Shown: positions 26,957 through 58,270 of the stretch, piece after piece | Layout of the letters: the number at the start of each line of letters is the position of its first letter | Numbering within the stretch: position 1 is the stretch's first letter | NCBI GenBank assembly: GCA_951406725.2 | Contig: OX597822.1 | Coordinates: 116,560,001 to 116,624,000, forward strand | DNA: 64,000 nucleotides | DNA from: Octopus vulgaris | Lineage: Eukaryota | Direction of reading: 5' to 3' | The notes under the pieces: model-generated | Databases searched by the model: none | The model's input: the letters and a program-made list of their open reading frames with translations, nothing else | Told to the model about the DNA's origin: nothing | Made by a program: the position numbers and the translations under genes

Positions 26957-27822
26957 TTCATTCCAAAGCAATAAAGGGTGCATTATGCAATCTTCTCATC
27001 AGGAAAGAAAGGGAGCCTCTCTCGACAACAAGACAAGCAAAATTTCGATGATTGCCTACATGGTAAACAAATGATAATGTGTTTTTTTAAAAAAACCGTT
27101 AGAAGAATTGCCGTCAAAGATAGATAGTAGGAAGAGAAGGGTCAAAGGAATAATAGGTAGGGAACAAGTGGAGAGGGAAGGGTACGTTGATTGAAAGAAT
27201 GTTCGAAGGCTTAGGAAACACTGGCAGAAACACACTTTCTCCTCATATAAATGATAACGATAGTCACTGTGGTTTGAACAATTAGCTTTACGTCCACCCC
27301 ACTTCTATGGAGAAATTCTTTCCTAAGCCTTCGAACATTCTTTCAATCAACGTACCCTTCCCTCTCCACTTGTTCCCTATCTATTATTCCTTTGTCCCTT
27401 CTCTTCCTACTATCTATCTTTGACGTCAATTCTTCTAACGGTTTTTTTTAAAAAAAAAACACTCATTATCACTTTGTTTACCATGTAGGCAATCATCGAA
27501 ATTTTTGTTTGTCTTGTTGTCGAGAGAGGCTCCCTATTTTTCCTGATGAGAAGATTGCATAATGCACCCTTTATTCCTTTGGAATGAAAACATGATGTCT
27601 TCGAAACATATGTCGAGAGTAAAGGAATTTTGTTAACATCTTCGTTCGACTCCATTCTTTCATTTATTCATATACAACACACAAATTTCTGCACATGAAC
27701 CCGGAGTTTCTACCCTTGACAGGTCGCTTCAACCATGTTTCTGACGTGAATTTGCTGCCCAGGTTTCGGTTAAACGAATTTTCCATGCTGACGATAAACA
27801 TAGGATAATTCATTCACCTACT
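26957..27822. mobile_element. Fold-back non-coding PLE-like element
   Basis: Inverted arms 26957-27218 / 27319-27588, hammerhead at 27538-27619, ends in (TA)n. Confidence 0.75.
27538..27619 (+). ncRNA. Type I hammerhead motif with multibranched stem II
   Basis: ttttc-CTGATGA-gaaga..[43 nt]..tcttc-GAAA-catatg-TC-gagag. Stem II gaaga/tcttc, palindromic stem III ACATATGT, GUC site; stem I weak (G-U rich). Confidence 0.7.
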
Positions 27823-27834
27823 TATATATATATG

Positions 27835-27867
<33 letters not shown>

Positions 27868-27987
27868 TATAATGGAAGCATTGTGTAGAATATATTGTAT
27901 AAAGTGAGTAAGGTCAAAACAATGTGAAGTAAATGCAAGGTAAATCACAAGAAAACAAATATGTGAATTAATGTAGACTTACCTTGT

Positions 27988-28026
27988 ATTTAATATTTCG
28001 GGGTTATGACCCCATTTTCAAGAAAT
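27988..28026 (-). ncRNA. Degenerate minimal hammerhead at the 3' end of the Penelope ORF
   Basis: Minus strand: atttc-TTGAAAA-t-ggggt(cata)acccc-GAAA-ta-TT-aaat. The core has U3/A8 in place of C3/G8; stem I is damaged. Confidence 0.55.
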
Positions 28027-28059
28027 TGATGAATATTGCTGATGTTCAAGTATGTGAGC

Positions 28060-29630
28060 ATGTGTGGAGTGGACATGTGCAGAAAGGTGTTGCTATAGCA
28101 ACCAGCTAGCTTCCTGTAACTCCCTTCTATTGTTGATCTTGGGTTTCTTTTGGTGTGTGGGAATGGCCTCACAGATTCTAAAGTTGCCTTTGTTCCAATG
28201 TGTTGCCTTGATGTGCATTGTGAATTCCCGGGTTTGGCATTTCCGTAGATGTTTCTTCACAGAAGTGCCTGCCTACATGTGTTCCTTAATGCGTACATGC
28301 AGGTTTCTTGTCATGCTTCCAATGTAGGATGCACCACATTTGCCACAGATGATCTTATATACAAGATAGGTCCTCTGGCGCAATTCAGGTTCATTGATGG
28401 GGCAGTTCGACAATGTGCACTCCTTGGAGTAGTGAGAGGTGTTGTTCTTGGACAGAGCTTTTCCCCAGGAAGGACCAGTGTGCACTATCTGTGTGTCAAG
28501 TCCTTCACTGCAGGCTGCATGTTGTATCACTGCAGTAGTTCTGTCGTCAGAGTGTGGTAGCTTTAGAAAGCATGTACCAGACATGGAGTATAATGGTTCT
28601 TCCAGGGTTTTGTGACCTTGATGTTCTTTAGGTGCCGTCATTTAGCTAAAGATGGTTGGTAGCCATTCAGGGTTAGGTCTCTGAGGAACTGTTTGGTGTT
28701 GATGGCTTTGTCGGTCATGTTGTTTATACGTGCAATCTCGTTTCTCACGTATGCGGCCTTGGCTCTGGTGGCTAAAGTTGATTGGTAGTGGATGAAAAGT
28801 TTTCTATTAGTGGCTTTTCTGTAGAATTTGGTAAATATAGAGTCTACCTCTGTGATCTTGATTTGGAAGTTGAGTAGAGAGAGGGTTCTGGATTCGTCTG
28901 GATATTCAATTTCGAATTTGATGTTTATGTCGGTGTTATGGAAGGTCTGGTGTATGTTAATGGCCTCATCCCTGGAGGACGTGATGATAAGGATGTCATC
29001 AACGTACCCGGAGAAGAAGAGGCATGAGTGGCAGGTGTTGAGTGCTGTGCATTCTAGCTTATCCATGTAGATGATGGCCAGCAGGCCTGAAAGGCTGGAA
29101 CCCATAGGTACACCACAAGTCTGTAAAACACACCGTTATATTGGAAGTAGGTGTTACCAGCTAAAATGGTTAGTAACTCTCGTATGTCCAAGGGTGTGAG
29201 GCTGAAGAGCTGGAGGTTGATGGATGGGGAGGTGGGAGAAGATAAAGGGAAAGATGGGGAGGAGGAGGAGGCTGCAGGGGGTGGCAAGGAGATGTGGGGG
29301 AGATAAGGACGTGATGTGGTCTATGAGGATATCAACAGCCAGGAGAGTGGGTACAGAGGGGGAAGAGTGAAACTATATCTAAACTAAAAGAGTATTTGTT
29401 ATTTTTAAGTATGGAAGGGGTCGATATCTTTGAGTCTTGTGAGGATTTCGTGGAAGCTGCTGACATTTCCAGGGAATGCATGTAGTTAAGGGCTTGAGGA
29501 TTTTAGAGAGGAGCCAAGAAATCTTATAGAAAGAACTGCTAATTCCTGATACTATGGGTCTGATTTTAAGCTTAGGTCCAGGTAGAAGGATGGGAGGGTG
29601 GTGTTTTTAGATGTGTAGTTCTGTTTAGTC
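28060..29630 (-). pseudogene. PLE reverse transcriptase + GIY-YIG endonuclease, disrupted
   Basis: ORF pieces 29054-29287, 28638-29105 and 28273-28641 with frameshifts. Confidence 0.9.
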
Positions 29631-29768
29631 TTTTGAATACAAGGTAAGTCTACATTAATTCACACATTTGTTTCCTTGTGATTTACCTTGCATTTACTTT
29701 GCATTGTTTTGGCCTTACCCATAATCCTTTATATCTATGTCTGTCTGTCTATCTATCTATCTATATAC

Positions 29769-29801
<33 letters not shown>

Positions 29802-29814
29802 CATATATACACAC

Positions 29815-30040
29815 AGTTGTTGTAGTGGCCACTGACAGTACTGCCTGATTGGCATCAGTGCCAGTGGCACGTAAAAGGCACTCACTACACTCTCGGAGTG
29901 GTTGGCATTAGGAAGGGCATCCAGCTGTAGAAACAGTGCCAGATCGGAATGGAACCTGGTGCAGCCTTCTAGCTTGCCAGCCCTCAGTCAAACCATCCAA
30001 CCCATGCCAGCATGGAAAGCGGACGTTAAACGATGATGAC
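29815..30040 (+). mobile_element. RTE 3' UTR fragment with (GAT)n tail
   Basis: Matches 54290-54490. Confidence 0.85.
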
Positions 30041-30100
30041 TATACATACACAAACACACACACACATATATATACATCTATGTATATGTGAGTATATATA

Positions 30101-30131
<31 letters not shown>

Positions 30132-30184
30132 GTATATATGTATATATATATACTTATATATATATATATATCTATATATATATA

Positions 30185-30571
30185 TACTCTTTACTCTTTT
30201 ACTTGTTTCAGTCAATTGACTGCGGCCATGCTGGAGCACCGCCTTTAGTCGAGCAAATCGACCCCGGGACTTATTCTTTGTAAGCCCAGTACTTATTCTA
30301 TCGGTCTCTTTTGCTGAACCGCTAAGTGACGGGGACGTAAACACACCAGCATCGGTTGTCAAGCAATGCTAGGGGGGACAAACACAGACACACACACATA
30401 TATATATATACATATATACCACAGGCTTCTTTCAGTTTCCGTCTACCAAATCCACTCACAAGGCATTGGTCGGCCCGAGGCTATAGCAGAAGACACTTGC
30501 CCAAGATGTCACGCAGTGGGACTGAACCCAGAACCATGTGGCTGGTTAGCAAGCTACTTACCACACAGCCA
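30185..30571 (-). mobile_element. SINE family A
   Basis: Near-identical reverse complement of 6417-6825. Confidence 0.9.
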
Positions 30572-31234
30572 TATATATATATAAATCTTTAGGTAAATAT
30601 ATTGAATAAGAATATTATTAAGCTATCAAATTTATTTTATACATTATATTTATATTTTTATATTTATTTATTTATATATATATTTGTAATACAGTTCTTT
30701 TACATGGGAATATCTTTATGAAGAGTTTGGATATTAATTTCCTTATATTTATAATAATAATATATTATTAAAATATATATGTATGTATATATATATATAT
30801 ATATATACATACATACATGATGGGCTTCCACACAATTTCTGTTTACTAAATCCTTGCATAAATCTTTGTCCAGCCTAGGGCTATAGTGGAAGGCCCTTGG
30901 TCAAGGTACCATGCAGGGGAATGGAACCCACGACCACATTGTAAAGAAACAAGCATCTCAAGCACAGCCAGGTCATCACCTATTTATAGATTTATTTATT
31001 GTTGTTCTTCCCATCATATTTTATTTATTCATGTTTAACTTTTTTGTTATATTTATTTATTTATGCATTTTTCAGCCCCTGCTGCTGCCAACCCCATTCC
31101 ACCAAAGTCTGGTTATTTTAGCAGGAACACATGGTAATCTCTTTGGATCGGGTCCTTCCTCTCTGGAATAACCATTGATAGAATGGGCAAGGGAAAGGGG
31201 GAAGATAGGTATAAGGGTGTTTGGCTTGAGAAAG

Positions 31235-31616
31235 GTAGCAGTGGCAGAAGTAGTGGTGGTGGTGGTGGTGGTGGTGGTAGTGGTGGCTTCTAAGTGTAGT
31301 GTTAGTGATGGTGTGGAGATAGTAATGGTGTTTGTGGTAGTGTTAGTGGTGATGGTGGTTGGTGGTTGCAGTGGTTGCAGTGGTGGTGTTGTTTGTGATA
31401 ATGTTAGTGGTAGTATTAATGGTGGTGGTGGTGGTGGCAATGATGATAGTCAAAATGGTGTTGGCAGCAGTGCTGCTGGTGATGATGGTGGTGGTGGTGG
31501 TGTTGCTGCTTCTGATGCTGCTGCTGGTGTCAGTGTTAGTGATAGTAGTGGTGGTGGTGGTGGTGGTGATGGTGCTGGTGGTAGTGGTCGTGGTAGTTAT
31601 TGTGGTAGTGCTGCTG

Positions 31617-31648
<32 letters not shown>

Positions 31649-31805
31649 GGTAGTGCTGCTGCTGCTGCTGCTGGTGTTGGTGGTGATGACAGTGATGTGA
31701 TTTAGATGGCATAGATACTGATGATGGTAGTGCTGCTGTTGTTGCTGTTGTTGCTGTTGTTGCTGTTGGTGGTGATGCTGCTGCTGCTGCTACTACTGCT
31801 ACTGA
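31235..31805. repeat. (GGT/GCT/GTT)n trinucleotide low-complexity tract
   Basis: Directly visible. Confidence 0.9.
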
Positions 31806-31817
31806 CATGATTTAGAT

Positions 31818-32079
31818 CAGGGATGGGCAACTTTACATCAACTGGGGCTCCCCCGCATCATCCAAGTGGGAGAGGGCCGCATGATGAAACACATAGGCAT
31901 GAAATATTACTCACCCACTTCACACTGAATGCTTTGCAGATCTTCTTAATTTCATTTGTCTTATTACGAAAGTTTATTTGTCATAGAATGAAATTAGTAA
32001 TCTAGAAACTTGTTGAGGGCCGCACAGCAACATGTCGAGGGCCCAATGCGGCGCATGGGCCACAGGTTTCCCATGCATG
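31818..32079. mobile_element. hAT-superfamily MITE (Buster/Charlie-like)
   Basis: Imperfect TIRs cagggatgggcaac / gtttcccatgcatg, exact 8-bp TSD atttagat (31810-31817, 32080-32087) with central TA, subterminal gggccgca motifs. Confidence 0.85.
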
Positions 32080-32976
32080 ATTTAGATGGTGTAAATGATG
32101 ATTGTGGTTGACGATTTTTGTTGTCATGGCAGTGGTCACAGTGATGTAGCGTTGGTCTGAGAAATGCGTCCTATAACGACAATGATGTCATTTACAGAAA
32201 CTGACCACAGTGGGGTGAAGACCTGTTTGAACTCACAACCTATTACATTAAGGACATAGCACTTCAAACCACCTCACTACCTCTAACACTCTGTGAGTTC
32301 TTAATTATTCAATCAGAATAATAAAAAAAAACACAATTAGAGACTGTTTTCTTATGAGAGTTCTTAAAAACACATTTACCATTTCTTTGATCCAGGATGA
32401 TTGGTTCAGCAATGTTCTTGGCACCATACGGAGTTGAGGAACAATAAATAAGCTACACAGCTTTAGTTGAAGACTTCTAAACAGTCTCAACAGTTCTAAG
32501 AGAATAGTAATATTTCCTCTCTTTAAAGGTGGTGCTGTTACAGAGAGAGAAAAACTGAGAGCACCAACCATGTGATACTTAATTATGTCCCCCCACTAAG
32601 TGGGCAGAGACATGGCTGTGTGCTGAAGAAATTTACTTTCCAAACACACACTTTTGGGTTCGATCCCACCCTATGGCACCTTGGGCAACAGTTTTACCCT
32701 ATAGCTTCAGATAAGCCAGTACATTGTGAGTGGAATTTGGTTAAATGAAAACTATGCTTGATTTCACTCTCTATGCACAGATGAAAAGTATTCTGCCCTC
32801 ACTGTAAAGTGGTTGATATTAAGGAGGGACTTCATCCACCATAGAACCCGTGGCCAAAGCAAGCATTGAAGTTGGAGCATGATGCTGTCCTTTAGTCTTT
32901 TGACACATTATATCCTGTCAAATCACCCAACCAAGGCCAGCAGAGAACACTGACATTAAAGGATTATGATGATGAG

Positions 32977-33007
<31 letters not shown>

Positions 33008-33085
33008 ACACACACACATATACATATACATATATATATATATATATATATAAATCAGAATAAGCAATAAGGATATCCAAGGTAG

Positions 33086-33173
33086 TGTAGTACAATTGTT
33101 TCATGCTACTTCATTTCATTAAACACTGTAAGTATTACATCAGTTTTAAAATGTCGAGCAATCTTCAGCCACA
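33086..33173 (-). ncRNA. Type I hammerhead, long stem II (H1)
   Basis: Minus strand: tgtgg-CTGAAGA-ttgct..agcat-GAAA-caattg-TA-ctaca. Confidence 0.7.
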
Positions 33174-33243
33174 TATAGAATTTTTCAACTAAATAGACAA
33201 TGCATAAGAATGTGCATTGTCCATTTAATTGAAAAATTCTATA

Positions 33244-33320
33244 TATGGCTGAAGATTGCTCGACATTTTAAAACTTACAGTGTTTAATAAAATGAAGTAG
33301 CATGAAACAATTGTACTACA
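33244..33320 (+). ncRNA. Type I hammerhead, long stem II (H1) with deletion in loop II
   Basis: tatgg-CTGAAGA-ttgct..agcat-GAAA-caattg-TA-ctaca. Confidence 0.65.
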
Positions 33321-33447
33321 CTACCTTGGATATCCTTATTGCTTATTTTGATTATAATCACCCCATTTGATTTATATGGATAACACCATACAAAATTCTG
33401 GTGCCTTTAACTTAAGTACCATATTCATCTGAATCTAAATTTTGCTG

Positions 33448-33485
<38 letters not shown>

Positions 33486-33612
33486 AACTGACAAACAGAC
33501 TTGTTATCATCTTGAAAAGTGATGAAATAAATTCTTGTTTTGACTAGGAAACCCTGGGTAGCAATATTTAACAAGAATTGCAGTTTTTATTATAACAGTA
33601 TATACGTATGTA

Positions 33613-33658
<46 letters not shown>

Positions 33659-33862
33659 TGGGAATGAATGAGTTCAGTGAGTGGTAAGTTTACCATTCAC
33701 GTAGTGGCTCTTAATAGTAATCCCATTAAATCCCGGCTGTTGCATGATCCCTTGATCCCTAAGGGACTCAATGTGGTCTGAGAAAAGCTGTAACATATGT
33801 AACACATTGCAATAAAGTAATACCAAGTTTACGCCCATGTTTATTCTGCCGTTATATACACA

Positions 33863-35072
33863 CAGACCTGCAGGAAGTAAATAGACACCTTTAATTTTCA
33901 AAATCTTTTATTTAATGTGCAAAGTGAAACAATTGAAATGTAATCGATAGGTAGGACTACATACTTTAGTATTTAGTTGACATTCCCTTTGCAGTTCTTA
34001 ATTCAGAAACTCTTTTTGGCATTGGACTGATGAGCCTTGTGATAATGCAAACATCGAAACAATTCATCTTTAGATTTAGGTTTCTGTCCAGTTTTCTGTA
34101 TAGCTCTATCTAGTATGCTCCAAAGATTTTCTATTGGGTTCAGGTCAGAAGATTGGCTCGGCCAAGGAAGCTTTTTGATCCCATTTTCAATCAACTATTG
34201 TTGATTCCTTTTCGCTGTATGACATGGAGCCCCATCTTCCATGAATAAAAACTCATTTTTCGTTATGTTATCATATGCATACATCGGAAGTAGTCCTTGC
34301 TTAAATATTTCGATATAGAGTTTACGGTTCCAATACATTCGATCAGCTCCCCGTACCATTACAGAGATACCGCCATGTTTCACAGTTGGTTGGAGTCATT
34401 TCAAATCAAATTCTTTATTGGAAGCCTCCAGACCCAAACATGTCCACTGTCTGAAAATAATGTAAATCTGGATTCATCTAAGAAAATCACTCTATCTCAA
34501 AATGAACTGGATTTTTCTGACATCTCCTTAACCCATTTCTTTCTTTTCATGACATTAATTGGTTGAAGGAGAAGTTTTCTTCTAGCTGCTCGTCCATAAT
34601 ACCCAAGCTTATGCAGATATATAACACACGTTCTTGGACTAAATTCTAGCTGTTTTGCAATGTCAGAAGCCTTCGAACGGAGGTTCGTTTTCCACAATTC
34701 TCTTCAAACAGTGAAGCTTCCTTTCCAAGGGCCCAGGTCGGCCGGGACGAGAATCTGTTGCTTCTTTTCCTTGGCTTTTGCATTGCACTATAATTCTATT
34801 AACAGTAGCAAGAGGAATTTGAAGATTTTCAGTAATTTTTCACTGGCAAAGACCAGCCTCAGCTTGCCCAACAATACGACCTCTTTGAAAATCTGACAGT
34901 TCTGCTGAATTTTTTGTGCGTGGCATGGTTACTCTTCGCAAATGTTTAATATAATGGCACCTGGAATGAAAAAGAATAATTACATTGTACATTCTACACC
35001 ACTGAAAACATATTAAGAAATTTAGATCAGAAATTATGAAAATTAAAGGTGTCTATTTACTTCCTGCTTGTT

Positions 35073-35074
<2 letters not shown>
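33863..35074 (-). mobile_element. Tc1-family DNA transposon, decayed
   Basis: TIRs gcaggaagtaaatagacacctttaattt (33870-33897) / aaattaaaggtgtctatttacttcctgc (35040-35067); TA after the right end. Confidence 0.9.
33966..34926 (-). pseudogene. Tc1 DDE transposase, disrupted
   Basis: Motifs KLGYYGRAARRK, IFLDES, KHGG, FMEDGAPCH, WPSQSSDLNPIENLW, C-terminal GMSTKY; stops and frameshifts. Confidence 0.9.
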
Positions 35075-35154
<80 letters not shown>

Positions 35155-35289
35155 TGTGTGTGTGTATAGTCATCTAAGAATCCATGAGTCAGAAAAAAAA
35201 CCTTACACATGATACTCCTCAACATCCCAACCTTAATTGAATGCAAATACCAATACCTAAACTCCTACATGCACTTTCAGAAAATTCTT

Positions 35290-36470
35290 GTAAATTGTTG
35301 TGTGTGGGAAATGAAAAGCAGTTCGTCTACCTTCCTCTCTCATCTGTGCTCTGCCAAGCAGTCGTCACTCTGGCGATCCTGCCAAGCAGCTGTTATCTCA
35401 CCAACCTGAGAGCGAGTCCCCTCATGTTCATTTGCAATGTCTCGGCCGGCCAAAAGAGGACAACTCTGTCCTGTCCCCCCCCCCCCGCACTTCCCTTCTC
35501 ACGCTTCCGGTCAGTCCTTTGACCATTGACATCATGGCCCACTTCTTCCAGCTCGTCCCCACATGCCCCTCCCCACTGATCTCAAAGATCACCTCCTCAC
35601 TTCACTCCATGTTGAAATCTACTGCCCATCTGGGTGGGCACCCTGCACATTGTGATCTTCTTAAACTGGGAACCTCATTCTCTTCCTCTTCTCATCATCT
35701 GACGAAACAACAATCCTACCAACATCCAAGACATGACATTCCATCCACAGAGATGTTGTTTTTGGAATTGACAGCCATCACTATTCCACTCTTCCACTGA
35801 GTTGTGCAGCCTTTGGTGGCTTCACCCAGACTTCCTCTCCCACTGCTAATCGTCTCCAGTTGTGCTCTACTGAAACAATTCCCGGAGCAGGATCAATGGA
35901 TTGACACCCATCGCAGTTCCCAACCACCTTTGGATGTTCCATCTGGTAACGTTGGCGTCAATCCTCCTGGTGAGATCCAGGGTCCTATCCCTGCCCATAT
36001 GATGCATGGCATGCAGTCTCCTTAGCTAGGAGTCATTTAACTGACACACCACGGCTACTCCTTGCTTCGATTCTTCCGGTTCCCCTAAACAGGCCTTTTG
36101 GTGCTGCTTTTGGCTGTCTCCAAAAAAGATTCTTCCAGGATTGAGACATTTGAACAGACACAAAAATAATGGTATTCAAGGCAGTGGTCATCTCCAGACT
36201 CTTGTATGCATCTGTGACATGGACTACAAGCAGGAGACACATAAAAGTTCCCAAAAGGCACCAACCAATGCTGCCTTCAAAGAATTCTCAACATCCACTG
36301 CAAAGAAAAATGGACAAACTTCAATGTGTTGGAAGAAGCCAATGACCTCCATTAAAGCTATTGTCATCCAGAAACAGCTGAGATGGAATGGTCATGGTGT
36401 CCAAATGAAAAACAATCAGTTACTTAAGCAGCTCCTCTACTTCCAGTGACCATCACCCTTGACCTCAAAG
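35290..36470. pseudogene. Decayed RTE/BovB-like LINE fragments, both orientations
   Basis: Plus-strand C-terminal motif QLRWNGHGVQMKNNQLLKQLLY (36375-36445); upstream part appears to be minus-strand. Boundaries uncertain. Confidence 0.55.
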
Positions 36471-36650
36471 GGTAGCCAGGATAATGGCATATAATATATA
36501 TATATATATGTATATATAAGTTCAGTAAAATTTAGATTCAGATGAATATGGTACTTAAGTTAAAGGCACCAGAATTTAGTATGGTATTATCCATATAATT
36601 CAAAACGGGGTGATTATAATCAAAATAAGCAACAAGGATATCCAGAGGTA

Positions 36651-36739
36651 ATGCAGTACGATCGTTTCATGCGACTCCATTTAATTGAACAATGCAATCA
36701 TTACATCAATTTAAAATGTAGAGCAATCTTCAGCTGCAT
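36651..36739 (-). ncRNA. Type I hammerhead, long stem II (H1)
   Basis: Minus strand: atgcag-CTGAAGA-ttgc..gcat-GAAA-cgatcg-TA-ctgcat; 6-bp stem I, palindromic stem III. Confidence 0.8.
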
Positions 36740-36826
36740 AAAAATATAGAATTTAGTTGTGATTTTGGATAAAAAGAAAATTATACAAATGAATCCTTTG
36801 AATTTAACTAAATTCTAAACTTTTTT

Positions 36827-36915
36827 ATGCAGCTGAAGATTGCTCTACATTTTAAATTGATGTAATGATTGCATTGTTCAATTAAATGGAGTCGCATGAA
36901 ACGATTGTACTGCAT
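36827..36915 (+). ncRNA. Type I hammerhead, long stem II (H1)
   Basis: atgcag-CTGAAGA-ttgc..gcat-GAAA-cgattg-TA-ctgcat. Confidence 0.8.
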
Positions 36916-36964
36916 TACCTCTGGATAGCCTTGATGCTTATTTTGATTATATATATATATATAA

Positions 36965-37210
36965 TATTTATATACTGTTAAGTATATGCCTGGTCTTAGA
37001 GTGACCAATGATTTCACATCCATAAACTGCCTAACTTTATGAACAGCTCATCGGACTCTAATGACAAAGCCATCCATAGAGCTAGGCCCTCTATGGATGT
37101 GAAACCATTGGTCACTCTATGAATGGACATATACTTAACTGCACATAAATACATTACTGCTCTATGCCTTAGAGTGTGCTTCTTGTTTGGATATATGATT
37201 CACTGACAAT
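36965..37210. mobile_element. Small fold-back hammerhead element
   Basis: Imperfect arms about 36968-37047 / 37069-37150, tail to about 37210, microsatellite flanks. Confidence 0.7.
36996..37061 (-). ncRNA. Type I hammerhead (CCGAUGA core variant)
   Basis: Minus strand: ttagagt-CCGATGA-gctgttcataaa(..)tttatggatgt-GAAA-tca(t)tgg-TC-actctaa; 7-bp stem I, GUC site. Confidence 0.78.
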
Positions 37211-37213
37211 ATA

Positions 37214-37260
<47 letters not shown>

Positions 37261-39130
37261 CATCATCATCATCATCGTCGTTTAACGTCCGTTCTCCATG
37301 CTAGCATGGGTTGGACGGTTCGACCGGGGTTCTGGGAAGCCAGAAGGCTGCACCAGGCTCCAGTCTAAATTTGGCAATGTTTCTACAGCTGGATGCCAAC
37401 CACTCCGTGAGTGTAGTGGGTGCTTTTTACGTGCCACCTGCACAGGTGCCAGGCGGGGCTGGCAACGGCCACGGTCAGATTGGTGTATTTTATGTGCCAC
37501 CGGCACGGAAGCCAGTCGAGGCGGTGCTGGCATCGGCCACGAGTCGGATAGTGCTTTTTACGTACCACCAGACCAGGGATCCTGGCTGGTTCAATTCGAT
37601 TTCGATTTCGCTTGCCCCAACATGTCTTCACAAGCAAAGGGGGTTGGCAAGGGTGCCTGTCGTACGGTCGCATTGGAGTATTTTACGTGCCACGGCCACG
37701 AGTCGGATAGTGCTTTTTACGTACCATCAGACCAGGGATCCTGGCTGGTTCAATTCGATTTCGATTTCGATTTCGCTTGCCCCAACATGTCTTCACAAGC
37801 AAAGGGGGTTGGCATGGGTGCCTGTCGTACGGTCGCATTGGAGTATTTTACGTGCCACGGCCACGAGTCGGATAGTGCTTTTTACGTACCACCAGGCCAG
37901 GGATCCTGGCTGGTTCAATTCGGTTTCGATTTCGATTTCGCTTGCCCCAACATGTCTTCGCAAGCATGGGGGGTTGGCATGGGTGTCTGTCGTCGGATGA
38001 GGTTCTATATCGACTTCGCTTGCCTCAACCGGTCTTTGTGTCCAAGGGAGGAAAGGCATTCATAAGTGGGCTGGGCTCACTTGTCCTGCCTGGTCTTCTC
38101 ACGTACAGAATATTTCCAAAGGTCTCGGTCTCTGGTCATTTCCTCAGTGAGGCCTAAAGTTCGAAGGTCGTGCTTCACCACCTCGTCCCAGGTTTTCCTG
38201 GGTCTACCTCTTCCACGGGTTCCCTCAACTGCTAGGGATTGGCACTTTCTCACACACCTATCTTCATCCATTCTCGCCACATGACCATACCAGCGCAATC
38301 GTCTCTCTTGCACACCACAACTGATGCTTCTTAGGTACAACATTTCTCTCAAGGTGCTAACGCTCTGTCGAGTATGTACACTGACATTACACATCCATCG
38401 GAGCATACTGGCTTCATTCCTCACGAGCTTACGCATGTCCTCAGCAGTCACGGCCCATGTTTCGCTGCCATGTAGCATGGCTGTTCGTACACACGCATCA
38501 TACAGTCTGCCTTTTACTCTGAGCGAGAGGCCTTTAGTCACCAGCAGAGGTAAGAGCTCCCTAAACTTTGCCCAGGCTATTCTTATTCTAGCAGTTACAC
38601 TTTCAGCGCACCCACCCCCACTACTGACTTGGTCACCTAGATAACGGAAGCTATCAACTACTTCTAGTTTTTCCCCCTGGAAAGTGACGGAAGTTGTTTT
38701 CTGCAGATTTTCGGAGGTTAATGCTCCCGAGCATCTGCCACATACAAAAACTATCTTCCCAGTTAGCCTACCTTTGACATTGCTGCACCTCTTATGTGTC
38801 CATAGCTTACACTGGGTACATCTTATAGAGTTTCTACCTACACCTTTTCTACAGATCGAGCAGGGCCATCTTCCTGAAGATATTTGTGGATTGTCTACCT
38901 TTCTACTTATTAGTACTTTGGTTTTAGCTAGGTTGACTCTAAGGCCCCTTGATTCTAAACCCTCCTTCCACACCTGGAACTTCTCCTCCAGTTCTGATAG
39001 TGACTCAGCAATAAGAGCAAGGTCGTCAGCGTAGAGGAGCTCCCAGGGACAGCCTGTCTTGAATTCCTCCGTAATTGCCTGGAGTACTATGATAAATAGG
39101 AGGGGGCTGAGTACTGAACCCTGGTGGACC

Positions 39131-39131
<1 letters not shown>
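37261..39131 (-). mobile_element. 5'-truncated RTE LINE with intact C-terminal ORF, long 3' UTR and (ATG)n tail, in (TA)n
   Basis: ORF 38077-39131 (GVHQGSVLSP..YADD..PHD-like finger..RLRWYGHV) highly similar to the 50990 ORF. Confidence 0.95.
37534..37995. repeat. About 160-bp tandem repeat (x3) in the RTE 3' UTR
   Basis: cggccacgagtcggatagtgc at 37534, 37693 and 37858. Confidence 0.92.
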
Positions 39132-39169
<38 letters not shown>

Positions 39170-39173
<4 letters not shown>

Positions 39174-39735
39174 TTCAGAAAAATTTAGATTCAGATGAAT
39201 ATGGTACTTAAGTCAAAGGCACCAGAATTTTGTATGGTATTATCCATATAAATCAACAGGGTGATTGGAGGAAATCAACCTCTCTGTCTATATATCTACC
39301 TTCTTTATAATGTTGGCAAATGAATTAGGGATAAGAATGTGCATTGTCCGGTTGTTTGCAAGATTTCTAAAGGTGGCTGAAGATTGCTCAACGTTTTAAA
39401 ACTGATGTAATGCTTACAATGTTTAATAAAATGAAGTAGCATGAAACGATCGTACCACATTACCTCGGATATACTTGTTGCTGATTTTTAAAGGTGGCTG
39501 AAGATTGTTTGACGTTTTAAAACTGATGTAATGCTTACAATGTTTAATAAAATGAAGTAGCATGAAACGATCGTACCACATTACCTCGGATATACTTGTT
39601 GCTGATTTTTAAAGGTGGCTGAAGATTGTTTGACGTTTTAAAACTGATGTAATGCTTACAATGTTTAATAAAATGAAGTAGCATGAAACGATCGTACCAC
39701 ATTACCTCAGATATACTTGTTGCTTATTTCGATTA
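39170..39735. mobile_element. Family H1 element, copy 3: inverted tail plus three tandem hammerhead units
   Basis: 39170-39266 is the reverse complement of the tail 33354-33450; 121-bp unit repeated 3 times; (TA)n on both sides. Confidence 0.85.
39373..39700 (+). ncRNA. Three tandem type I hammerheads (39373-39458, 39494-39579, 39615-39700)
   Basis: Each reads gtgg-CTGAAGA-ttg(c/t)t..agcat-GAAA-cgatcg-TA-ccac; period 121 bp. Confidence 0.8.
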
Positions 39736-40129
39736 TATATATATATATAGAGCATTAACATCATTATCATTTTAGAATTTACTTTTCCATGCTTAATTTC
39801 TCAAATAAAACCCAAAATAATACCTGGGGGTGATCCTGAACTCAAGAACTATGGTTTAGGAATTTTACTACTTATTCAAGCACCACACCCATTCAGTGCT
39901 CGTTTCCCCCCCACCCCCTTCTTCTATTAGGAATGGTATAATTCGGTTAATGCAATAGAATATGTGACTTCTGTCTTAACCCCACCCCCACCCCTATCCT
40001 ATTCCTTCTTCTTCTTTCCAAAAGATGTGGAACGGAAAGGGTGGCGTTGGTGTGTCTTTGGAGAGAAATCTTTATTGAAATGTATTTAACATAGATCAAT
40101 GTGATCTACATGCCGGAAGTTCAGATACA

Positions 40130-40540
<411 letters not shown>

Positions 40541-47310: not shown

Positions 47311-48992
47311 TAGGGTATTTGAGAAAGTTGGGAGGCGAGTAACTGGCAGTATCAGACAGGGACAAAAATAAGGGTGTGCGATGAGATAAAGGCGAAAGTA
47401 GGTGATGGATGTCTAGAGAAGTAGCTCAGAAGGGAGAGTGAGTGATGGCTGGCAGTACAAAAGGGTTAGGGTTAAAGTGGAAAGGGTGGCAGGATGGGAA
47501 TGGTCCTATGCAATCCCTTCTGAATAAGCCTGGGTGGTGGCCATAAGTTTATTGTCAGCATTGTAGGTGATGGTAATGACAATGATAATAGAAGTGGTAG
47601 CGGTAGTGGTATTGATGATGATGATGATGAGGAGGAGGAGGAGGAGAACAACGATGAGGATGACAGTAGTGAGGGTGGTGGTGACAGTGGTGGTGGTGGT
47701 GGTGATATCAAGGTTATTATTGGCATTGTTGGTGATGATGCTAGTGATGACGATGACAACAACAACGATGGTGATGATGATGATGATGATGATGATGATG
47801 CTGGTGATGCTGGCAGTAACAATGCCGATGTCGATAATGATGACAATGATGGTGGTGGTGGTGGTCGTCATTGTCGTGGTCATAACAGCATCAACAACAA
47901 CAATTATGATGGTGAATGAAACCAATTCCATGTGAACATCTGCAACTACGGCCACCCCTGCAGGAAACATTCTGGAGTGTCGAGTTTAGATTTATTATCA
48001 AGTTCTGTTTTCTTTTGCATTTTTACTCTCCTCCTCCTCACTAATTTTTAAAATGTTTTTAATAGAATTTTTCCCTTCTCATTTCCTTCATCCTGTTACC
48101 CTGTTCTCTCATTTGCAAAGACCTCACAAGAAGTTGAGCTGATGTTACAGATTTTCAAACAGCACTTCAGATAATCCTCTCTTTATAATCATGGTTTCCC
48201 TTTGTTTTTTGAGCCCTCGCTGATGCCATCATAGAAGATATTCTGAGGGTTGAGGATTGATTTTCATCTGAAGAAGATACTCTTAAACATTGTTTGATTT
48301 TTTTCCTGGGGTTTTTTTGTGTTTTTTTTTTAAACAAGTCCTGTTTTGAAACTTGGCATTTCAATCTTTTGCTTGATTTTCTCATTGACTTTTTTGTTAC
48401 TATATTTCTGTTTTTGCTTCAACTAACTTAGAAAATGATGAAAAATTTAGTAAAATAACTCTGGCATTATCAAACTGCTGTTTAAGGCAGCAAATTGGCA
48501 TAATTGTTAGCATGTCAGGCAAAATGCTTAGTAGCCTTTCATCAGTCTTCATGTTCTGAGTTCAAACTCTACCAAGATAAACTTTGTCTTTCATCCTTCT
48601 GGGGTCAATAAAATTACTACCAGTTGAGCACTGAGGTTGATTTAATTGATGTACCCTCTTCCCATAATTGCTGGCCTTGTGCCAAAATTTGAACCCATTA
48701 TTCGACTGCTGTTTGGAACATATATTAACATGAAATTTTGATGAAAATTTTTAATTTAGATTTACTTTTATACTCTTTTATTTGTTTCAGTCATTTGGAG
48801 CACTGCCTTTAGTCAAGCAAATCAACCCCAGAACTTATTCTTTGTAAGCCTAGTACTTATTTCTATCAGTCTCTTTTGCTGAACTGCTAAGTTACAGGGA
48901 CATAAACTGGTGTCCTGTCCAGCTGGGGAACACATACGCCATTGAAATCGGGAAACCAGGCCCATGAGCCTGGCTAGGCTTTTAAAGGGCAC

Positions 48993-49052
<60 letters not shown>

Positions 49053-49053
<1 letters not shown>

Positions 49054-49720
49054 TTCCTTCTTTCTTCAAATTTTCTTCTGTTTCTTGCCAAGTGTTTTCC
49101 GTACACCTAGAGCAGAGAAGCTCATTCTATGCATTCCCAGATTACACACGCAAATTCACAGGTAAAATATGTATTTAAAAAATTAATAAATAAATAAATT
49201 CATGAATGGATGTTGTTTTCACATCGATAATACTCTTCTCAGTACATGAGCCGTTCCAGTCGACACGATCTTTTGCATTTCCTGTAGGGATGGTAAGCCT
49301 GGTATCATTTTCAAATAGGTTTCAGTACCTTTTTTTATCATTCCTAGAGATCCCACAATCACTGGTACTGTTGTCACCTTGAGATGCCACATTTTTTCAA
49401 TTTCCGTTAGCAAGTCCTTATATTTACTAATCTTGTCAAATTCTTTTGCCGCTATATTGTGATCGCAAGGGACACTCATGTCAATTAACAAACACATCCT
49501 TTTTGTCTAATCTTTTATGATAATATCTGGTTTATTAGTTTTTATTGTTTTGTCGGTATGTACGGTAAAGTCCCACAGAATCGACACATTTTCTCCCTCA
49601 GTCACAGCTTCAGGATGGTGTTTATACCATTTGTCAGCGGTTTTGATTTCATAATGCTGACATATTGTCCAGTGTAAATACTGGCCGACTCTGTCATGTC
49701 TTGCTTTATATTCTTTATAT
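49053..49720 (-). mobile_element. 3' end of R4/Dong-like LINE inserted in (TAA)n
   Basis: YKARHDRV, WDFTVHTDK..NKPDIII, LIDMSVP..EFDKISKY restriction-like endonuclease; (TTA)n on both sides. Confidence 0.85.
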
Positions 49721-49751
49721 TTATTATTATTATTATTATATGTATATATAT

Positions 49752-50465
49752 GAAATGTAGGCGGCTGACCAGATGGATTCTTAGAGCTTTTAGAACAAGA
49801 GACCAGGAAACCATGATGGTCCTCCGGAGGACACTTGTCCTTAGCCACTTTGACTATTGCTCTCAGCTATGGTCACCAACCAGTGTCAAATTAATCACAG
49901 AACTTGAGGTAATTCAACAAAGCTACACAAAGAAGATAGTCTCTGTGCAGCATATAAGCTATTGGGAAAGACTCAAGAGATTAAGACTCTATTCCTTAGA
50001 GCGTAGGCGAGAAAGATATGCCATAATATACATCTGGAAGATCCTAGAAGGACTTGTCCCAAACTTTGGCATCGAGAGTTACACAAATACTAGAACTGGG
50101 CGCCACTGCATAGTGCCAAGGACTCCAAATTTACCATCAAGATGTAGGACAAGATACAGTTATAGCCTGGGCTTCAGAGGTCCACAGCTCTTCAATATCC
50201 TCCCGAAGGACCTGAGAGACCTGCATGGGGTGGATGCAGATGTCTTTAAAATAAAGCTTGGCCTCTTCCTGTCAGGTGTCCCAGATGAGTCAACTTCACG
50301 ACAGGCGGTGCAGATGAGGGCAGCTGCATCAAACTCTCTCATGCACCAAATGTCAATTGCTAAAAAGCATTCGTGAAGTAAAATCATGTAGCAACACTGA
50401 ATGGCGGTGCCCCAGCATGGCCACAGCTCGTGAGCTGAAACTAGATAAAATGAAAAAGGAAAATG
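49752..50465 (+). mobile_element. 3' end of CR1-group LINE
   Basis: HFDYCSQLWSP..ISYWERLKRLRLYSLERRRERY C-terminal RT region, short 3' UTR with stem-loop and A-rich tail. Confidence 0.85.
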
Positions 50466-50494
50466 AAAAAAAAAATATATATATATATATATAT

Positions 50495-50991
50495 AGCAAT
50501 TAAGGACAACTACTTAATAAGGAAAACTTAACAAGAAATTGTCTGGTAGATAGCGTAAAAACCTCATAAGAGAAAAAATTTCGAAAATAATTATTTCTTA
50601 TTGAACATATTAATTTATATATAGAGGGCATTATACATACATGCTAGAAGGCATAATACATACATGCCAAACGCTAAGAGGGACAATTAGTCATTTCTAC
50701 CAAAAATATTACTAATCCCACCGAATGCAATTTTTCAAAGTAAGACAGTTAGATGATCGACTTAAGCGGGGCAGGGTCGTTGTTTATTTATAATGCATTC
50801 AGGCCTGCTGATGAGTACGTAAGTATGAAATCACTGTGATACAGGTCTATATTTTTTAAATGTCTTACTTTGAAAAATTGCATTCGGTGGGATTAGTAAT
50901 ATTTTTGGTAGAAATGACTAATTGTCCCTCTTAGCGTTTGGCATGTATGTATTATGCCTTCTAGCATGTATGTATAATGCCCTCTATATAT
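50495..50991. mobile_element. Young fold-back hammerhead element
   Basis: Perfect 131-bp inverted arms 50617-50747 / 50861-50991, 113-bp loop with hammerhead, tail 50495-50616, TA flanks. Confidence 0.85.
50801..50848 (+). ncRNA. Type I hammerhead ribozyme
   Basis: aggcctg-CTGATGA-gtac(gtaa)gtat-GAAA-tcac(t)gtga-TA-caggtct: canonical core, 7-bp stem I, GNRA-capped stem II; predicted cut after 50841. Confidence 0.9.
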
Positions 50992-53887
50992 GCAAGAAAT
51001 AAGGTGGAGAGGAGGATCAGCTAGGTTCCTCACAGGCAAGGAACGCAGGTACAAGATTTTCTGGGCAGGGAACACTGACGGGGTTGGTGGCGTGGGTATA
51101 CTTATCGCTGAGAAATGGGTAGATAAAGTAATTGAGGTAATCAGAGTAAGTGACAGAATACTTAAGATTAGATTAGTGCTTCATCATAGTTTAGCAACCA
51201 TTATATCAGCCTATGCTCCTCAGTCGGGGCTACCCGATGGACAGAAAGACCGATTCTATGACACTCTACTGCAGACTACCTCATTGACGAACGACAGAGA
51301 CCTTATCTTTGTGGCTGGTGACTTCAATGGTCACGTTGGACGACATGCTGGGGGCTTCCATGGCGTACATGGAGGCTATGGCTATGGCTCCCGCAACGAG
51401 GAGGGAACCAGGCTGCTGGAGTTCTGCGATGCAAATAATCTTATGATTTGCAACACTAACTTCAGGAAACCTACCAGCCACCTAGTCACTTACCAATCGG
51501 GCCAACATACCAGCCAAATTGACTACATCCTTACAAGGCAAAGGGAGAGATGGCTGCTTATAAATGCCAAAACCTTCCCAGGTGAAGAATGTACCCCACA
51601 ACATAGACTGGTAGTTAGTGACTTTAGGATCAGGACTAGGAGGACAACCAGAAGACGACAAATATGGAGAAGAAGGATCTGGAAGCTTAAAGATCCTGCA
51701 AATGGACAGAGATTTAGGGACATATTACTTGAAGCCTCTGACAAAGTAGAAGGGGATAGAGCATCACAGGGGGTAGAAGACAGCTGGACGTTTCTAAGGG
51801 ACAACCTGCTGAGAGCCACTGACCAGATCTGTGGCTGGTGCAAAGTCCCCTCTCGACCTAGAGAAAAGAGACAGGCTTGGAAGGTCTGGAAAAATGGGGG
51901 TAGCAGGGAATTGTATCAGACTGCCAAAAGAGAAGCTAGGAGACAGGTTTATTTAGCCAGAGGGGAAGCAGATAAGAAAAAATTTGCCAATGTTCTGCGC
52001 CGTGAGGACCAAAGACTGGAGGTGTTTCGCGTTGCAAGACAGTGTGTGAGAGAGAATCGTGATGTGGTAGGAGAGAAGTGTGTTCGCATGGAAGATGGTT
52101 CACTTGCGCTAAATGAGGATGCAAAGAGAGAGGTTTGGAGATGCCACTATGAAAGGTTGCTGAATGAAGAAAATGAATGGGATAAAGAGAGTCTGCCGAA
52201 TGTTGACCCAACAGAGGGACCAGCTATCCGAGTTGATAGTTCTGTGGTAGCTAAGGCAATTAGAAGCATGAAGACAGGGAAAGCCCCAGGCCCATCAGGA
52301 ATCACTGCAGAGATGCTCAAAATGTCTGGTAGTGTTGGCTATAGCCTAGTCACCCATATAGTTAATCAGGTGATACACAAAGGGGTCATACCCAATGACT
52401 GGTGTAGCAGTATAATAGTCAACTGCTACAAAGGTAAAGGTGATGCCCTAGATACAAATAACTACAGAGGTATCAAGCTGTTGGACCAGGTGATGAAGGT
52501 TACGGAGAGGGTCATAGCCCAACTAATTAGAGAGAGAGTTAGTTTAGATGAGATGCAGTTTGGGTTTGTGCCAGGGAAAAGTACTACTGATGCTATATTC
52601 CTGGTAAGGCAGCTGCAGGAGAAATACCTAGCCAAAGATAAGCCCCTGTACCTGGCTTTTGTTGACATGGAGAAAGCCTTCGACAGGGTCCCCCGATCCC
52701 TTATCTGGTGGGCAATGAGAAAACTAGGGATAGATGAATGGTTAGTGAGAGCTGTGCGGGCCATGTATAGGGACGCCGCTAGTAGGGTGAGGGTTGGAAA
52801 TGAGTACAGTGAAGAATTCCGGGTAGAGGTAGGGGTCCACCAAGGCTCAGTACTCAGCCCCCTCCTATTTATCATAGTCCTCCAGGCAATAACGGAGGAA
52901 TTCAAGACAGGATGCCCTTGGGAGCTCCTCTATGCTGATGACCTTGCTCTAATTGCTGAGTCGCTATCAGAACTGGAGGAGAAGTTTCAGGTGTGGAAAC
53001 AAGGATTAGAATCGAAGGGCCTCAGAGTCAATCTAGCTAAAACCAAAGTCGTAATCAGTAGGAAGGTTGACAAATCACAAACACCTTCAGGTAGATGGCC
53101 CTGCTCGATCTGTAGAAAAGGTGTAGGTAGAAACTCTATAAGATGCACCAAGTGTAAGCTATGGACACATAAGAGATGCAGCAATGTCAAAGGAAGGCTA
53201 ACTAGGAAGATGGTTTTTGTATGTGGCAGATGCTCAGGAACAATAAACACTGAAAATGCTCTGAGACCAACTTCTGTCACTTTCCAGGGAGAAAAACTAG
53301 AAATAGTTGATAGTTTCCGTTACCTAGGTGACCAAGTCAGCAGCGGGGGCGGGTGTGCTGAAAGTGTAACTGCTAGAGTAAGAATAGCTTGGGCAAAGTT
53401 CAGAGAGCTCTTACCTCTGCTGGTGACAAAAGGCCTCTCGCACAGAGTGAAAGGCAGACTGTATGATGCGTGTGTGCGAACAGCCATGCTACATGGCAGT
53501 GAAACATGGGCCGTGACTGCTGAGGATATGCGTAAGCTCGCTAGAAATGAAGCCAGTATGCTCCGATGGATGTGTAATGCCAGTACTCACACTCGGCAGA
53601 GTGTAAGTACCTTGAGAGAAAAGCTGGACCTAAGAAGCATCAGTTGTGGTGTGCAAGAGAGACGTTTGCGCTGGTATGGTCATGTGGCGAGAATGGATGA
53701 AGATAGTTGTGTGAAAAAGTGCCACACCCTAGCGGTTGAGGGAACCTGTGGAAGAGGCAGACCCAGGAAAACCTGGGACGAGGTGGTGAAGCACGACCTT
53801 CGAACTTTAGGTCTCACTGAGGAAATGACTAGAGACCGAGACCTCTGGAAGTGTGCTGTGCACGAGAAGACCCGGCAGGACAAGTGA
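50990..53887 (+). CDS. RTE-clade LINE ORF (APE endonuclease + reverse transcriptase + PHD-like finger), 5'-truncated
   Basis: QE, YAP, GDFNGHVG, IDYI and QH APE motifs; NYRGI, FVDMEKAFD, QGSVLSP and YADD RT motifs; RLRWYGHV..RGRP RTE C-terminus. Confidence 0.95.
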   Translation: MQEIRWRGGSARFLTGKERRYKIFWAGNTDGVGGVGILIAEKWVDKVIEVIRVSDRILKIRLVLHHSLATIISAYAPQSGLPDGQKDRFYDTLLQTTSLTNDRDLIFVAGDFNGHVGRHAGGFHGVHGGYGYGSRNEEGTRLLEFCDANNLMICNTNFRKPTSHLVTYQSGQHTSQIDYILTRQRERWLLINAKTFPGEECTPQHRLVVSDFRIRTRRTTRRRQIWRRRIWKLKDPANGQRFRDILLEASDKVEGDRASQGVEDSWTFLRDNLLRATDQICGWCKVPSRPREKRQAWKVWKNGGSRELYQTAKREARRQVYLARGEADKKKFANVLRREDQRLEVFRVARQCVRENRDVVGEKCVRMEDGSLALNEDAKREVWRCHYERLLNEENEWDKESLPNVDPTEGPAIRVDSSVVAKAIRSMKTGKAPGPSGITAEMLKMSGSVGYSLVTHIVNQVIHKGVIPNDWCSSIIVNCYKGKGDALDTNNYRGIKLLDQVMKVTERVIAQLIRERVSLDEMQFGFVPGKSTTDAIFLVRQLQEKYLAKDKPLYLAFVDMEKAFDRVPRSLIWWAMRKLGIDEWLVRAVRAMYRDAASRVRVGNEYSEEFRVEVGVHQGSVLSPLLFIIVLQAITEEFKTGCPWELLYADDLALIAESLSELEEKFQVWKQGLESKGLRVNLAKTKVVISRKVDKSQTPSGRWPCSICRKGVGRNSIRCTKCKLWTHKRCSNVKGRLTRKMVFVCGRCSGTINTENALRPTSVTFQGEKLEIVDSFRYLGDQVSSGGGCAESVTARVRIAWAKFRELLPLLVTKGLSHRVKGRLYDACVRTAMLHGSETWAVTAEDMRKLARNEASMLRWMCNASTHTRQSVSTLREKLDLRSISCGVQERRLRWYGHVARMDEDSCVKKCHTLAVEGTCGRGRPRKTWDEVVKHDLRTLGLTEEMTRDRDLWKCAVHEKTRQDK

Positions 53888-54490
53888 GTCCACAACCCGT
53901 GGCCTTCTACATGGGATGGAGCCAGCCTACGTATGCATACCTTCCCTTCTTGGGACACAAAACTCTACTTGTGAAGACGTGTTGAGGCAAGTGAGGATCA
54001 GAATCGAAATCGATTAATGGAAATTGCGGATGTGCTACCAGTGCCGGTGGCATGTCGAAACTCTGCTTGTGAAGACCCATTGAGGCAAGTGAGGATCAGA
54101 ATCAGAAATCGATCAATGGAAATTGCAGATGTGTTACCAGTGCCGGTGGCATGTAAGAGAACTTTCCGTTTCGCGACCGTTGCCAGCACCGCCCCGTTTC
54201 GTGTCCGTTGCCAGCCTCGCCTGGCCCTCGTGCCGGTGGCACATAAAAAGCACCATTTGTTCGTGGCCGTTTGCCAGCTCTGTCTGGCACCAGTGCGGGT
54301 GGCACGTAAAAAGCACCCACTACACTCACGGAGTGGTTGGCGTTAGGAAGGGCATCCAGCCGTAGAAACACTGCCAGATTTGACTGGGCCTGATGAAGCC
54401 TTCTGGCTTCACAGACCCCAGCAGAACAAATCCAACCCATGCTAGCATGGAAAACGGACGCTAAATGATGATGATGATGATGATGATGAT
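50990..54490 (+). mobile_element. RTE LINE, copy A, with 3' UTR and (GAT)n tail
   Basis: ORF plus about 600-bp 3' UTR containing a ~99-bp tandem duplication; TA flanks. Confidence 0.95.
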
Positions 54491-54497
54491 ATATATA

Positions 54498-54712
54498 TAA
54501 CGGGAAGGTTTACGAAAATAAACAAAAGACGAAGGCAGGTGGAGTACAAACAAATAATGTATTAGTATGGCGCTCAGGAATAGAAATAAAACAAGTCTTT
54601 TACGTTTCGAGCCTACGCTCTTCAACAGAAAGATACACAGAAAAGAAACACGGAGAGAAACAAGGAGAGAAAAAAATTGCGTGTAGGGAATAACGATCCA
54701 ACATGGCGTTAT
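54498..54712 (-). mobile_element. Short non-coding PLE-like element with minimal hammerhead
   Basis: Hammerhead-like motif 54596-54633; similarity to 4780-4960. Confidence 0.6.
54596..54633 (-). ncRNA. Minimal hammerhead-like motif with CUGUUGA core
   Basis: Minus strand: tcttt-CTGTTGA-a-gagc(gtag)gctc-GAAA-cg-TA-aaaga; perfect stems I and II, ACGT stem III, A6 replaced by U. Confidence 0.7.
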
Positions 54713-54865
54713 ACAATGGGCTTCTTTCAGTTTCTGTCTGCCAAATCCACTCACAAGGCTTTGGTTGACCCAAGGCTATAACAAAAGACACTTGCCCAAG
54801 GTGCCATACAGTGAGACTGAACCCAGAACCATGTGGTTGGTAAGCAAGCTACTTACCACACAGCC
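54713..54865 (-). mobile_element. 5' half of SINE family A
   Basis: gggcttctttcagtttc..cacttgcccaagg..cttaccacacagcc. Confidence 0.85.
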
Positions 54866-56766: not shown

Positions 56767-56823
<57 letters not shown>

Positions 56824-56824
<1 letters not shown>

Positions 56825-57493
56825 TTTTCCTTCTTTCTTCAAATTTTCTTCTGTTTCTTGCCAAGTGTTTTCCGTACACCTAGAGCAGAGAAGCTCATTC
56901 TATGCATTCCCAGATTACACACGCAAATTCACAGGTAAAATATGTATTTAAAAAATTAATAAATAAATAAATTCATGAATGGATGTTGTTTTCACATCGA
57001 TAATACTCTTCTCAGTACATGAGCCGTTCCAGTCGACACGATCTTTTGCATTTCCTGTAGGGATGGTAAGCCTGGTATCATTTTCAAATAGGTTTCAGTA
57101 CCTTTTTTTATCATTCCTAGAGATCCCACAATCACTGGTACTGTTGTCACCTTGAGATGCCACATTTTTTCAATTTCCGTTAGCAAGTCCTTATATTTAC
57201 TAATCTTGTCAAATTCTTTTGCCGCTATATTGTGATCGCAAGGGACACTCATGTCAATTAACAAACACATCCTTTTTGTCTAATCTTTTATGATAATATC
57301 TGGTTTATTAGTTTTTATTGTTTTGTCGGTATGTACGGTAAAGTCCCACAGAATCGACACATTTTCTCCCTCAGTCACAGCTTCAGGATGGTGTTTATAC
57401 CATTTGTCAGCGGTTTTGATTTCATAATGCTGACATATTGTCCAGTGTAAATACTGGCCGACTCTGTCATGTCTTGCTTTATATTCTTTATAT
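56824..57493 (-). mobile_element. R4/Dong-like LINE 3' end (duplicate)
   Basis: Same translation as 49053-49720. Confidence 0.85.
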
Positions 57494-57524
57494 TTATTAT
57501 TATTATTATTATATGTATATATAT

Positions 57525-58240: not shown

Positions 58241-58270
58241 AAAAAAAAAAATATATATATATATATATAT

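Follow-up and report, generated by a model that had tools for sequence, protein, structure and literature searches.

Penelope-like elements (PLEs) of the Hydra clade are defined, in the accessible text of Craig et al. (2021; PMC8557442), by features that include a CxCX5C linker, CxxC and CxH motifs without CCHH, RWK and DKT motifs, and (TA)n targeting. Their hammerhead ribozymes are tabulated in File S2 of that study, where, by our count, 14 of 25 families follow the pattern CUGANGA-U...U-GAAA and stem II spans 12-26 nt. Minimal PLE hammerheads act as dimers (Lunse et al., 2016, as cited in the available part of PMC6765202), and dimer cleavage is described in the accessible sections on PLE hammerheads (PMC4209133) and axolotl hammerheads (PMC7229834). 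Most PLE hammerheads have no loop I-loop II contact, according to the available portion of a 2017 review. Natural hammerheads with U10.1 opposite U11.1 have also been reported, and U-U was the best-tolerated mismatch there (Perreault, 2011; PMC3088659, accessible text). Here, a hammerhead family, H1, is described from a 64,000-nucleotide stretch of the Octopus vulgaris genome (assembly GCA_951406725.2, contig OX597822.1, positions 116,560,001 to 116,624,000; hereafter the window). Judged from its sequence, H1 is a real hammerhead-motif variant in a known retroelement clade, and its U-U base is ordinary. Its long, covarying stem II and the genome-wide abundance of this form appear to be undescribed.

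Seven hammerhead-core motifs lie in the window, in three insertions and on both strands, and each insertion is flanked by (TA)n. The probability is put at roughly 78% that these motifs are type I hammerheads in the 3' repeat of a Hydra-clade PLE, which would cleave weakly after GUA as monomers and better as stem III-paired dimers, and whose stem II extension has been selected. The core (C3U4G5A6N7G8A9, G12A13A14, A15.1-U16.1, and H17) is complete in all seven copies. U10.1 faces U11.1 in each of them, in place of the canonical G10.1-C11.1 pair, and stem II measures 59 nt in four copies, 58 nt in two, and 48 nt in the copy at 33249. An earlier sequence-only reading of this DNA had proposed seven copies in three insertions with U-U throughout, and both points were recovered. 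It had also correctly given the two forms of stem I (gtgg/ccac at 39373 and gcag/ctgc at 36829) and the predicted cuts after 36909 and 39454. Other details held in part. Its stem II of about 59 nt fits every copy but the 48-nt one, its ttgc start is found in most copies but is ttgt in two tandem copies, and its palindromic stem III is imperfect (cgattg) in the copy at 36833. It included neither the membership of the motif in a Penelope-like retrotransposon nor the occurrence of a long stem II in many families of the genome.

Covariation was assessed in an alignment of 35 chosen copies from six groups, comprising A and B (H1, U-U) and the sister subfamilies C-F (G-C). The catalytic core is invariant in these 35 rows; across nine subfamilies, CUGA-GA, GAAAC, and GUA are likewise invariant, and N7 is variable. 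In the named structure, 92% of the alignment cells pair, compared with 25-50% when partners are slid. Double changes occur in 9 of 21 pairs, and the RNAalifold covariation term is -3.5. Stem I is 98.6% paired, with double changes in three of its four pairs, and the basal part of stem II has three covarying pairs. At the subfamily level, where only copies of modal length were used (84 of 91), three pairs covary in stem I and six in stem II, three of the latter in the extension. Random re-matching yields a mean of 1.0 covarying stem II pairs, none of 20,000 trials reached six, and the three extension pairs have P=0.018. Among sister subfamilies, in which the base is a canonical G-C, all three stem II helices covary. 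The apical pair reads U-A, U-G, and C-G across A, B, and E/F. The 10.1/11.1 position is U-U in H1 (A and B) and G-C in sister subfamilies C-G. The covariation of this 58-59-nt three-helix hairpin across sister subfamilies argues that the extension is probably maintained by selection on the element RNA. At the level of the lineage, it also bears out the previous proposal of a selected hammerhead-type RNA structure.

Folding of stem II points in the same direction across a broader sample, consisting of 19 clusters from 114 long motifs at the loci examined, not all of them independent and all located by a finder that demanded two basal pairs. In 17 of these clusters, stem II has a better fold than its shuffles (mean z -2.3), and in 15 the same is true of the inner part that is left when the basal 6 nt are trimmed from each side (mean z -1.3). 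In the window, stem II alone gives z from -0.1 to -2.6 in the six copies tested, and no improvement over shuffles is seen for the whole motif (sense strand, z -1.3 to +0.6). Of 189 copies, 169 have a self-complementary stem III middle, and the 8-bp duplex is worth -6 to -10 kcal/mol. Deamination of CpG on both strands converts cgatcg to caattg. The change between these two stem III forms had been read as a sign of selection, but CG>CA plus CG>TG yields it directly, and this argument was rejected as weak.

The carrier of H1 can be followed upstream of the motif, where about 1.3 kb of shared sequence reaches an endonuclease (EN); the 3' untranslated region (UTR) is about 1.2 kb long. At one locus (L061), a reverse transcriptase (RT; 3471-4378), an EN (5316-5710), and an H1a hammerhead (at 6894) follow one another on one strand, and at another (L082) H1b is joined to the same EN as H1a. 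The EN of L062 matches GIY-YIG (PF01541, E 5e-5), and the Pfam search returned no match for the RT. Read by eye, L061 and L062 contain CNCRIRSKC (CxCX5C), CELC/CKLC (CxxC), and CIH (CxH), and no CCHH. RWK and DKT are present in a sister open reading frame of 947 aa (L416), from a region N-terminal to the part retained in the H1 copies examined. The C-terminal GIY-YIG EN after the RT and the hammerhead near the 3' end are features of the Hydra clade, as are the habits of (TA)n targeting, truncation, inversion, and an optional tail. On these sequence features, the H1 carrier is a Hydra-clade PLE, and the window copies are its 5'-truncated, inverted, or tandem 3' ends, which are non-coding. A Naiad origin was rejected, since the EN is C-terminal, not N-terminal.

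A DNA search of the 2.8-Gb genome gave 1,646 first-look candidates, and the EN query gave 18,729. H1 copies share a 3' end, vary at the 5' end, often form inverted pairs, and may carry a tail of about 97 nt. The 118 copies sorted by 3' end comprise 53 that stop at TA, 40 with the tail, 19 with other ends, and 6 without the end motif. In an EN tree built on a short alignment with unnamed homologues only and no named Hydra references, H1 groups with its sisters C-G and with families J/K in one clade (96/92), and family H2 falls outside it. No relative of the RT was found in viral contigs. Several related proteins of Hydra type (L416:1751-4591, minus strand; L404; L405; L417) have several hundred asparagine (Asn)-rich low-complexity residues between RT and EN. 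Copies of subfamily F are nearly identical, which suggests recent activity. Between two subfamily F hammerheads lies an intronless 221-aa frame (L414:3770-4432, plus strand) that looks by eye like a deoxycytidine monophosphate deaminase and is possibly a retrocopy.

In the window, insertion 1 (33053-33450) joins two truncated PLE 3' ends in inverted orientation between (TA)n tracts, with a minus arm at 33053-33204, a plus arm at 33204-33353, and a 97-nt tail at 33354-33450. Its minus-strand core (33091-33168) belongs to subfamily A (H1a) and has a 59-nt stem II and caattg in the middle of stem III. The plus-strand core (33249-33315), also of subfamily A, has the 48-nt stem II, shortened by an 11-nt deletion, and a 3-bp stem I. 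The tail contains a short hairpin-like stretch, TGGTGC...GTACCA, that is kept in H1 and in the distant sister G (L416, below position 200) and could mark an RT start site. Insertion 2 (36515-36951) is likewise an inverted pair between (TA)n tracts, with a tail on its minus arm and none on its plus arm. Both of its cores, at 36657-36733 (minus) and 36833-36909 (plus, predicted cut after 36909), are of subfamily B (H1b) with a 58-nt stem II. Insertion 3 consists of an inverted tail segment (39164-39266, minus) and a truncated PLE 3' UTR (39267-39736, plus) that ends in three 121-nt tandem units and then (TA)n. These units (39362-39729) supply three of the seven cores: a subfamily A core with a 59-nt stem II at 39377-39454, with a predicted cut after 39454, a second at 39498-39575, and a third at 39619-39696, about 38 nt beyond whose predicted cut the element ends. 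As the copies at 39.4-39.7 kb are a local tandem, the seven window copies amount to about three events from three subfamilies. Positions 37260-39130, between insertions 2 and 3, hold a repeat that recurs at about 52800-54500 and resembles by eye an RTE-type long interspersed nuclear element, and a transposase-like remnant, again judged by eye, lies near 34.0-34.9 kb. From about 47370 to 64000, the sequence is duplicated in tandem (period about 7.8 kb, identity 98.9%), which may be real or an assembly artefact. A short-stem-II hammerhead-like motif with a 7-bp stem I and a longer stem III occurs twice on the plus strand (50808-50841 and 58584-58617), both times inside a duplication.

Long stem II motifs extend well beyond H1. 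In the genome, 2,509 sites match the H1-type pattern exactly, compared with none in the reversed control, and a minority of the matches listed are from families other than H1, H2 among them. For motifs closed by G-C whose stem III reads AC-N4-GT, the counts are 12,952 for a stem II of 46-66 nt (control 27), 3,211 for 67-97 nt (control 35), and 1,087 for 8-38 nt (control 59); a looser short-stem pattern has 17,859 matches (control 1,611). The G-C-closed long motifs (46-97 nt) thus total about 16,000 (control 62), across many dissimilar families. These patterns differ in strictness and their matches may overlap; so counted, long stem II forms would make up about half of the hammerheads countable by pattern. 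A stem I/stem II test was passed by 26 of the first 30 long matches listed in the genome, compared with 1 of 120 viral-contig matches. A metagenome scan with the H1 pattern gave 120 matches, of which 6 have a stem I of at least 3 bp; all are unlike H1 and were read as chance. Wherever an upstream protein was found for a long-stem-II family, it was a Hydra-type EN. The window holds a member of a different family at 27543-27614 (plus), with a G-C-closed stem II of 53 nt and catatg in stem III, a relative of which (L342) sits downstream of such an EN. The expectation that standard models would miss the variant was confirmed with Rfam, which found no hammerhead in the window at its gathering threshold and none among the 103 rows at E<=10 for positions 27000-40500.

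In the proposed mechanism, the element RNA would cleave itself after GUA, weakly as a monomer, and dimers pairing through the 8-nt palindrome of stem III would cleave better. By analogy with other PLE hammerheads, this preference for dimers is likely. The main substrates of cleavage would be tandem or read-through transcripts, and the templates of reverse transcription would be RNA that is uncut at the 3' motif or re-ligated. Genomic copies continue about 38 nt past the predicted cut, or about 135 nt when the tail is present, which implies that their templates had either escaped cutting there or been re-ligated. The uncut-template model agrees with a lizard PLE, where insertion did not require cleavage. 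Within the stem II extension, 121 of 133 A-G copies carry an AATAAA/ATTAAA hexamer 18-32 nt before the predicted cut. In the window, one lies in the 3' arm of stem II at about 39424-39430, and a conserved U/G-rich TTGTTGCTT tract follows downstream in A-G; in the J/K families, the hexamer is often directly after the cut. H2 (0 of 20) and nearly all other families have no hexamer at this position, and a poly(A) signal is therefore not the general reason for the extension.

Several points weigh against selected, cleaving hammerheads of this kind. The count of covarying pairs rests on our own criterion, with a structure drawn from the same sequences, and the relatedness of the subfamilies makes the shuffle and re-matching P values optimistic. 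Double changes within H1 alone are confined to stem I, and none involves an extension pair; H1b shifts register. Stem I has just 4-6 bp, minimum free energy folds of copies of the 39377 type lack a complete hammerhead, and no loop I-loop II contact was noticed by eye. In the lizard PLE, where two RT starts define the tail, insertion in vitro was independent of hammerhead cleavage (PMC11167929, accessible text). Contigs of four sequencing runs guessed to be RNA carry the family sequence but reveal no molecule ends, and such contigs are uninformative on expression or cleavage.

A wider reading, held only tentatively, is that the Hydra-clade radiation left about 18,000 hammerhead motifs, and that in these motifs, around half of all that patterns can count, the 46-97-nt stem II is a structured module with its own job. 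This job might be to bind an element protein or to control how dimers cleave; for the H1 clade, it might be to display a poly(A) signal 23-26 nt before the cut. The class would be invisible to current descriptors and might explain the 'half-core' motifs of Naiads. Slightly less probable, and on balance unlikely, is an active ribozyme with a long stem II tolerated as a by-product, in which fold-back insertions by the RT lengthen the loop at no cost and the hairpin only closes stem II. Stem II lengths from about 46 to 97 nt, sequences that are unlike between families, and the separation of H2 from the H1 clade in the EN tree would all be expected of such a by-product. These elements also often make inversions, and several families combine a stable basal helix with an unstructured inner part (inner z>0 in 4 of 19). 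However, along subfamilies A-F, compensatory changes are found in both the middle and the apical helix, and length is held at 57-60 nt across A-G despite only about 50% stem II identity.

It is improbable that the motif has lost cleavage, with core and hairpin retained because a protein of the element binds them or because they signal 3'-end processing. Most copies pass the cut site and 112 of 118 have the downstream end motif, the hexamer and U/G-rich tract of the A-G copies are placed as such a signal might be, and the lizard PLE inserts without cleavage. Yet the catalytic nucleotides are all invariant while N7 varies freely, as catalysis predicts, and the hexamer at that place is mostly confined to A-G, in a sequence that is AT-rich. 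Least probable is a non-autonomous, retrozyme-like H1 replicating as a small circular RNA, which the 121-nt triple tandem and the retrozyme-like arrays of other long-stem-II families (tandem units near 535 nt in length that contain a hammerhead with a 49-50-nt stem II; L411 and L412, G000:C1:5009500-5014500 and 16525000-16530500) might suggest, but the variable 5' ends of H1 are nested in a 3' UTR continuous with RT-EN, no fixed-length non-coding unit was found, and the 121-nt tandem was not seen in 27 other loci examined.

Ribozyme censuses that use short-stem-II descriptors would undercount hammerheads in this genome by about half, and claims of hammerhead-less PLEs may partly reflect the descriptor used. 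Subfamilies A-G provide naturally occurring compensatory variants, among which 10.1/11.1 switches between G-C and U-U on one scaffold, and the function of PLE hammerheads could be probed with them. In the literature outside subscription journals, no description of long-stem-II PLE hammerheads was found, nor of octopus hammerheads beyond Craig et al. (2021); the accessible parts of a 2026 preprint and of the 2017 review do not describe this class, and the supplements of Cervera and de la Peña (2014) and Lunse et al. (2016) may list such variants. Earlier data contain hints of long arms. The spike-moss element PLE-X1_sMoe is tabulated with a stem II region of 54 nt, and eight Naiads have an 'HHR_half_core' with core halves 35-50 nt apart (both in the PMC8557442 supplement). 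Both belong to other PLE clades and are flagged there as deviating; no covariation is shown for either, and the Naiad motifs were compared by description only.

The minimal PLE hammerheads, as presented in the available text of Cervera and de la Peña (2014; PMC4209133), share with H1 a short helix I, a palindromic helix III, a location in the pseudo-long terminal repeat (pLTR), and a predicted dimer mechanism. However, their helix II has 6-8 bp and a conserved G10.1-C11.1, whereas that of H1 is an irregular three-helix hairpin. Axolotl HHR_Amex2 has U-U at the base of stem II, and its monomer reached 22% cleavage in 1 h and its dimer a higher level, but it is a canonical type I hammerhead that makes a loop 1-loop 2 contact and resides in retrozyme repeats of 350 bp (PMC7229834, accessible text). 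With these published examples (PMC8557442, PMC3088659, and PMC7229834), the U-U base can no longer be viewed as the non-canonical novelty that the sequence-only reading took it for; it is the majority state in Hydra-PLE hammerheads. The latter (Penelope-1..18_HM, Hydra-1_aJap, and Hydra-1_Obim; PMC8557442) are the closest relatives. Like H1, they have type I topology, a short palindromic stem III, a 3' location, CUGANGA-U-ugc...gca-U-GAAAC in 14 of 25 families, (TA)n targeting, and the RT and EN motifs. Hydra elements are described, in the accessible text, as generally under 3 kb, whereas here a 3' UTR of about 1.2 kb accompanies a 947-aa frame with long Asn-rich inserts. The distinguishing feature is stem II, which spans 12-26 nt in the published elements but 58-59 nt in H1 and 46-97 nt in the other octopus families.

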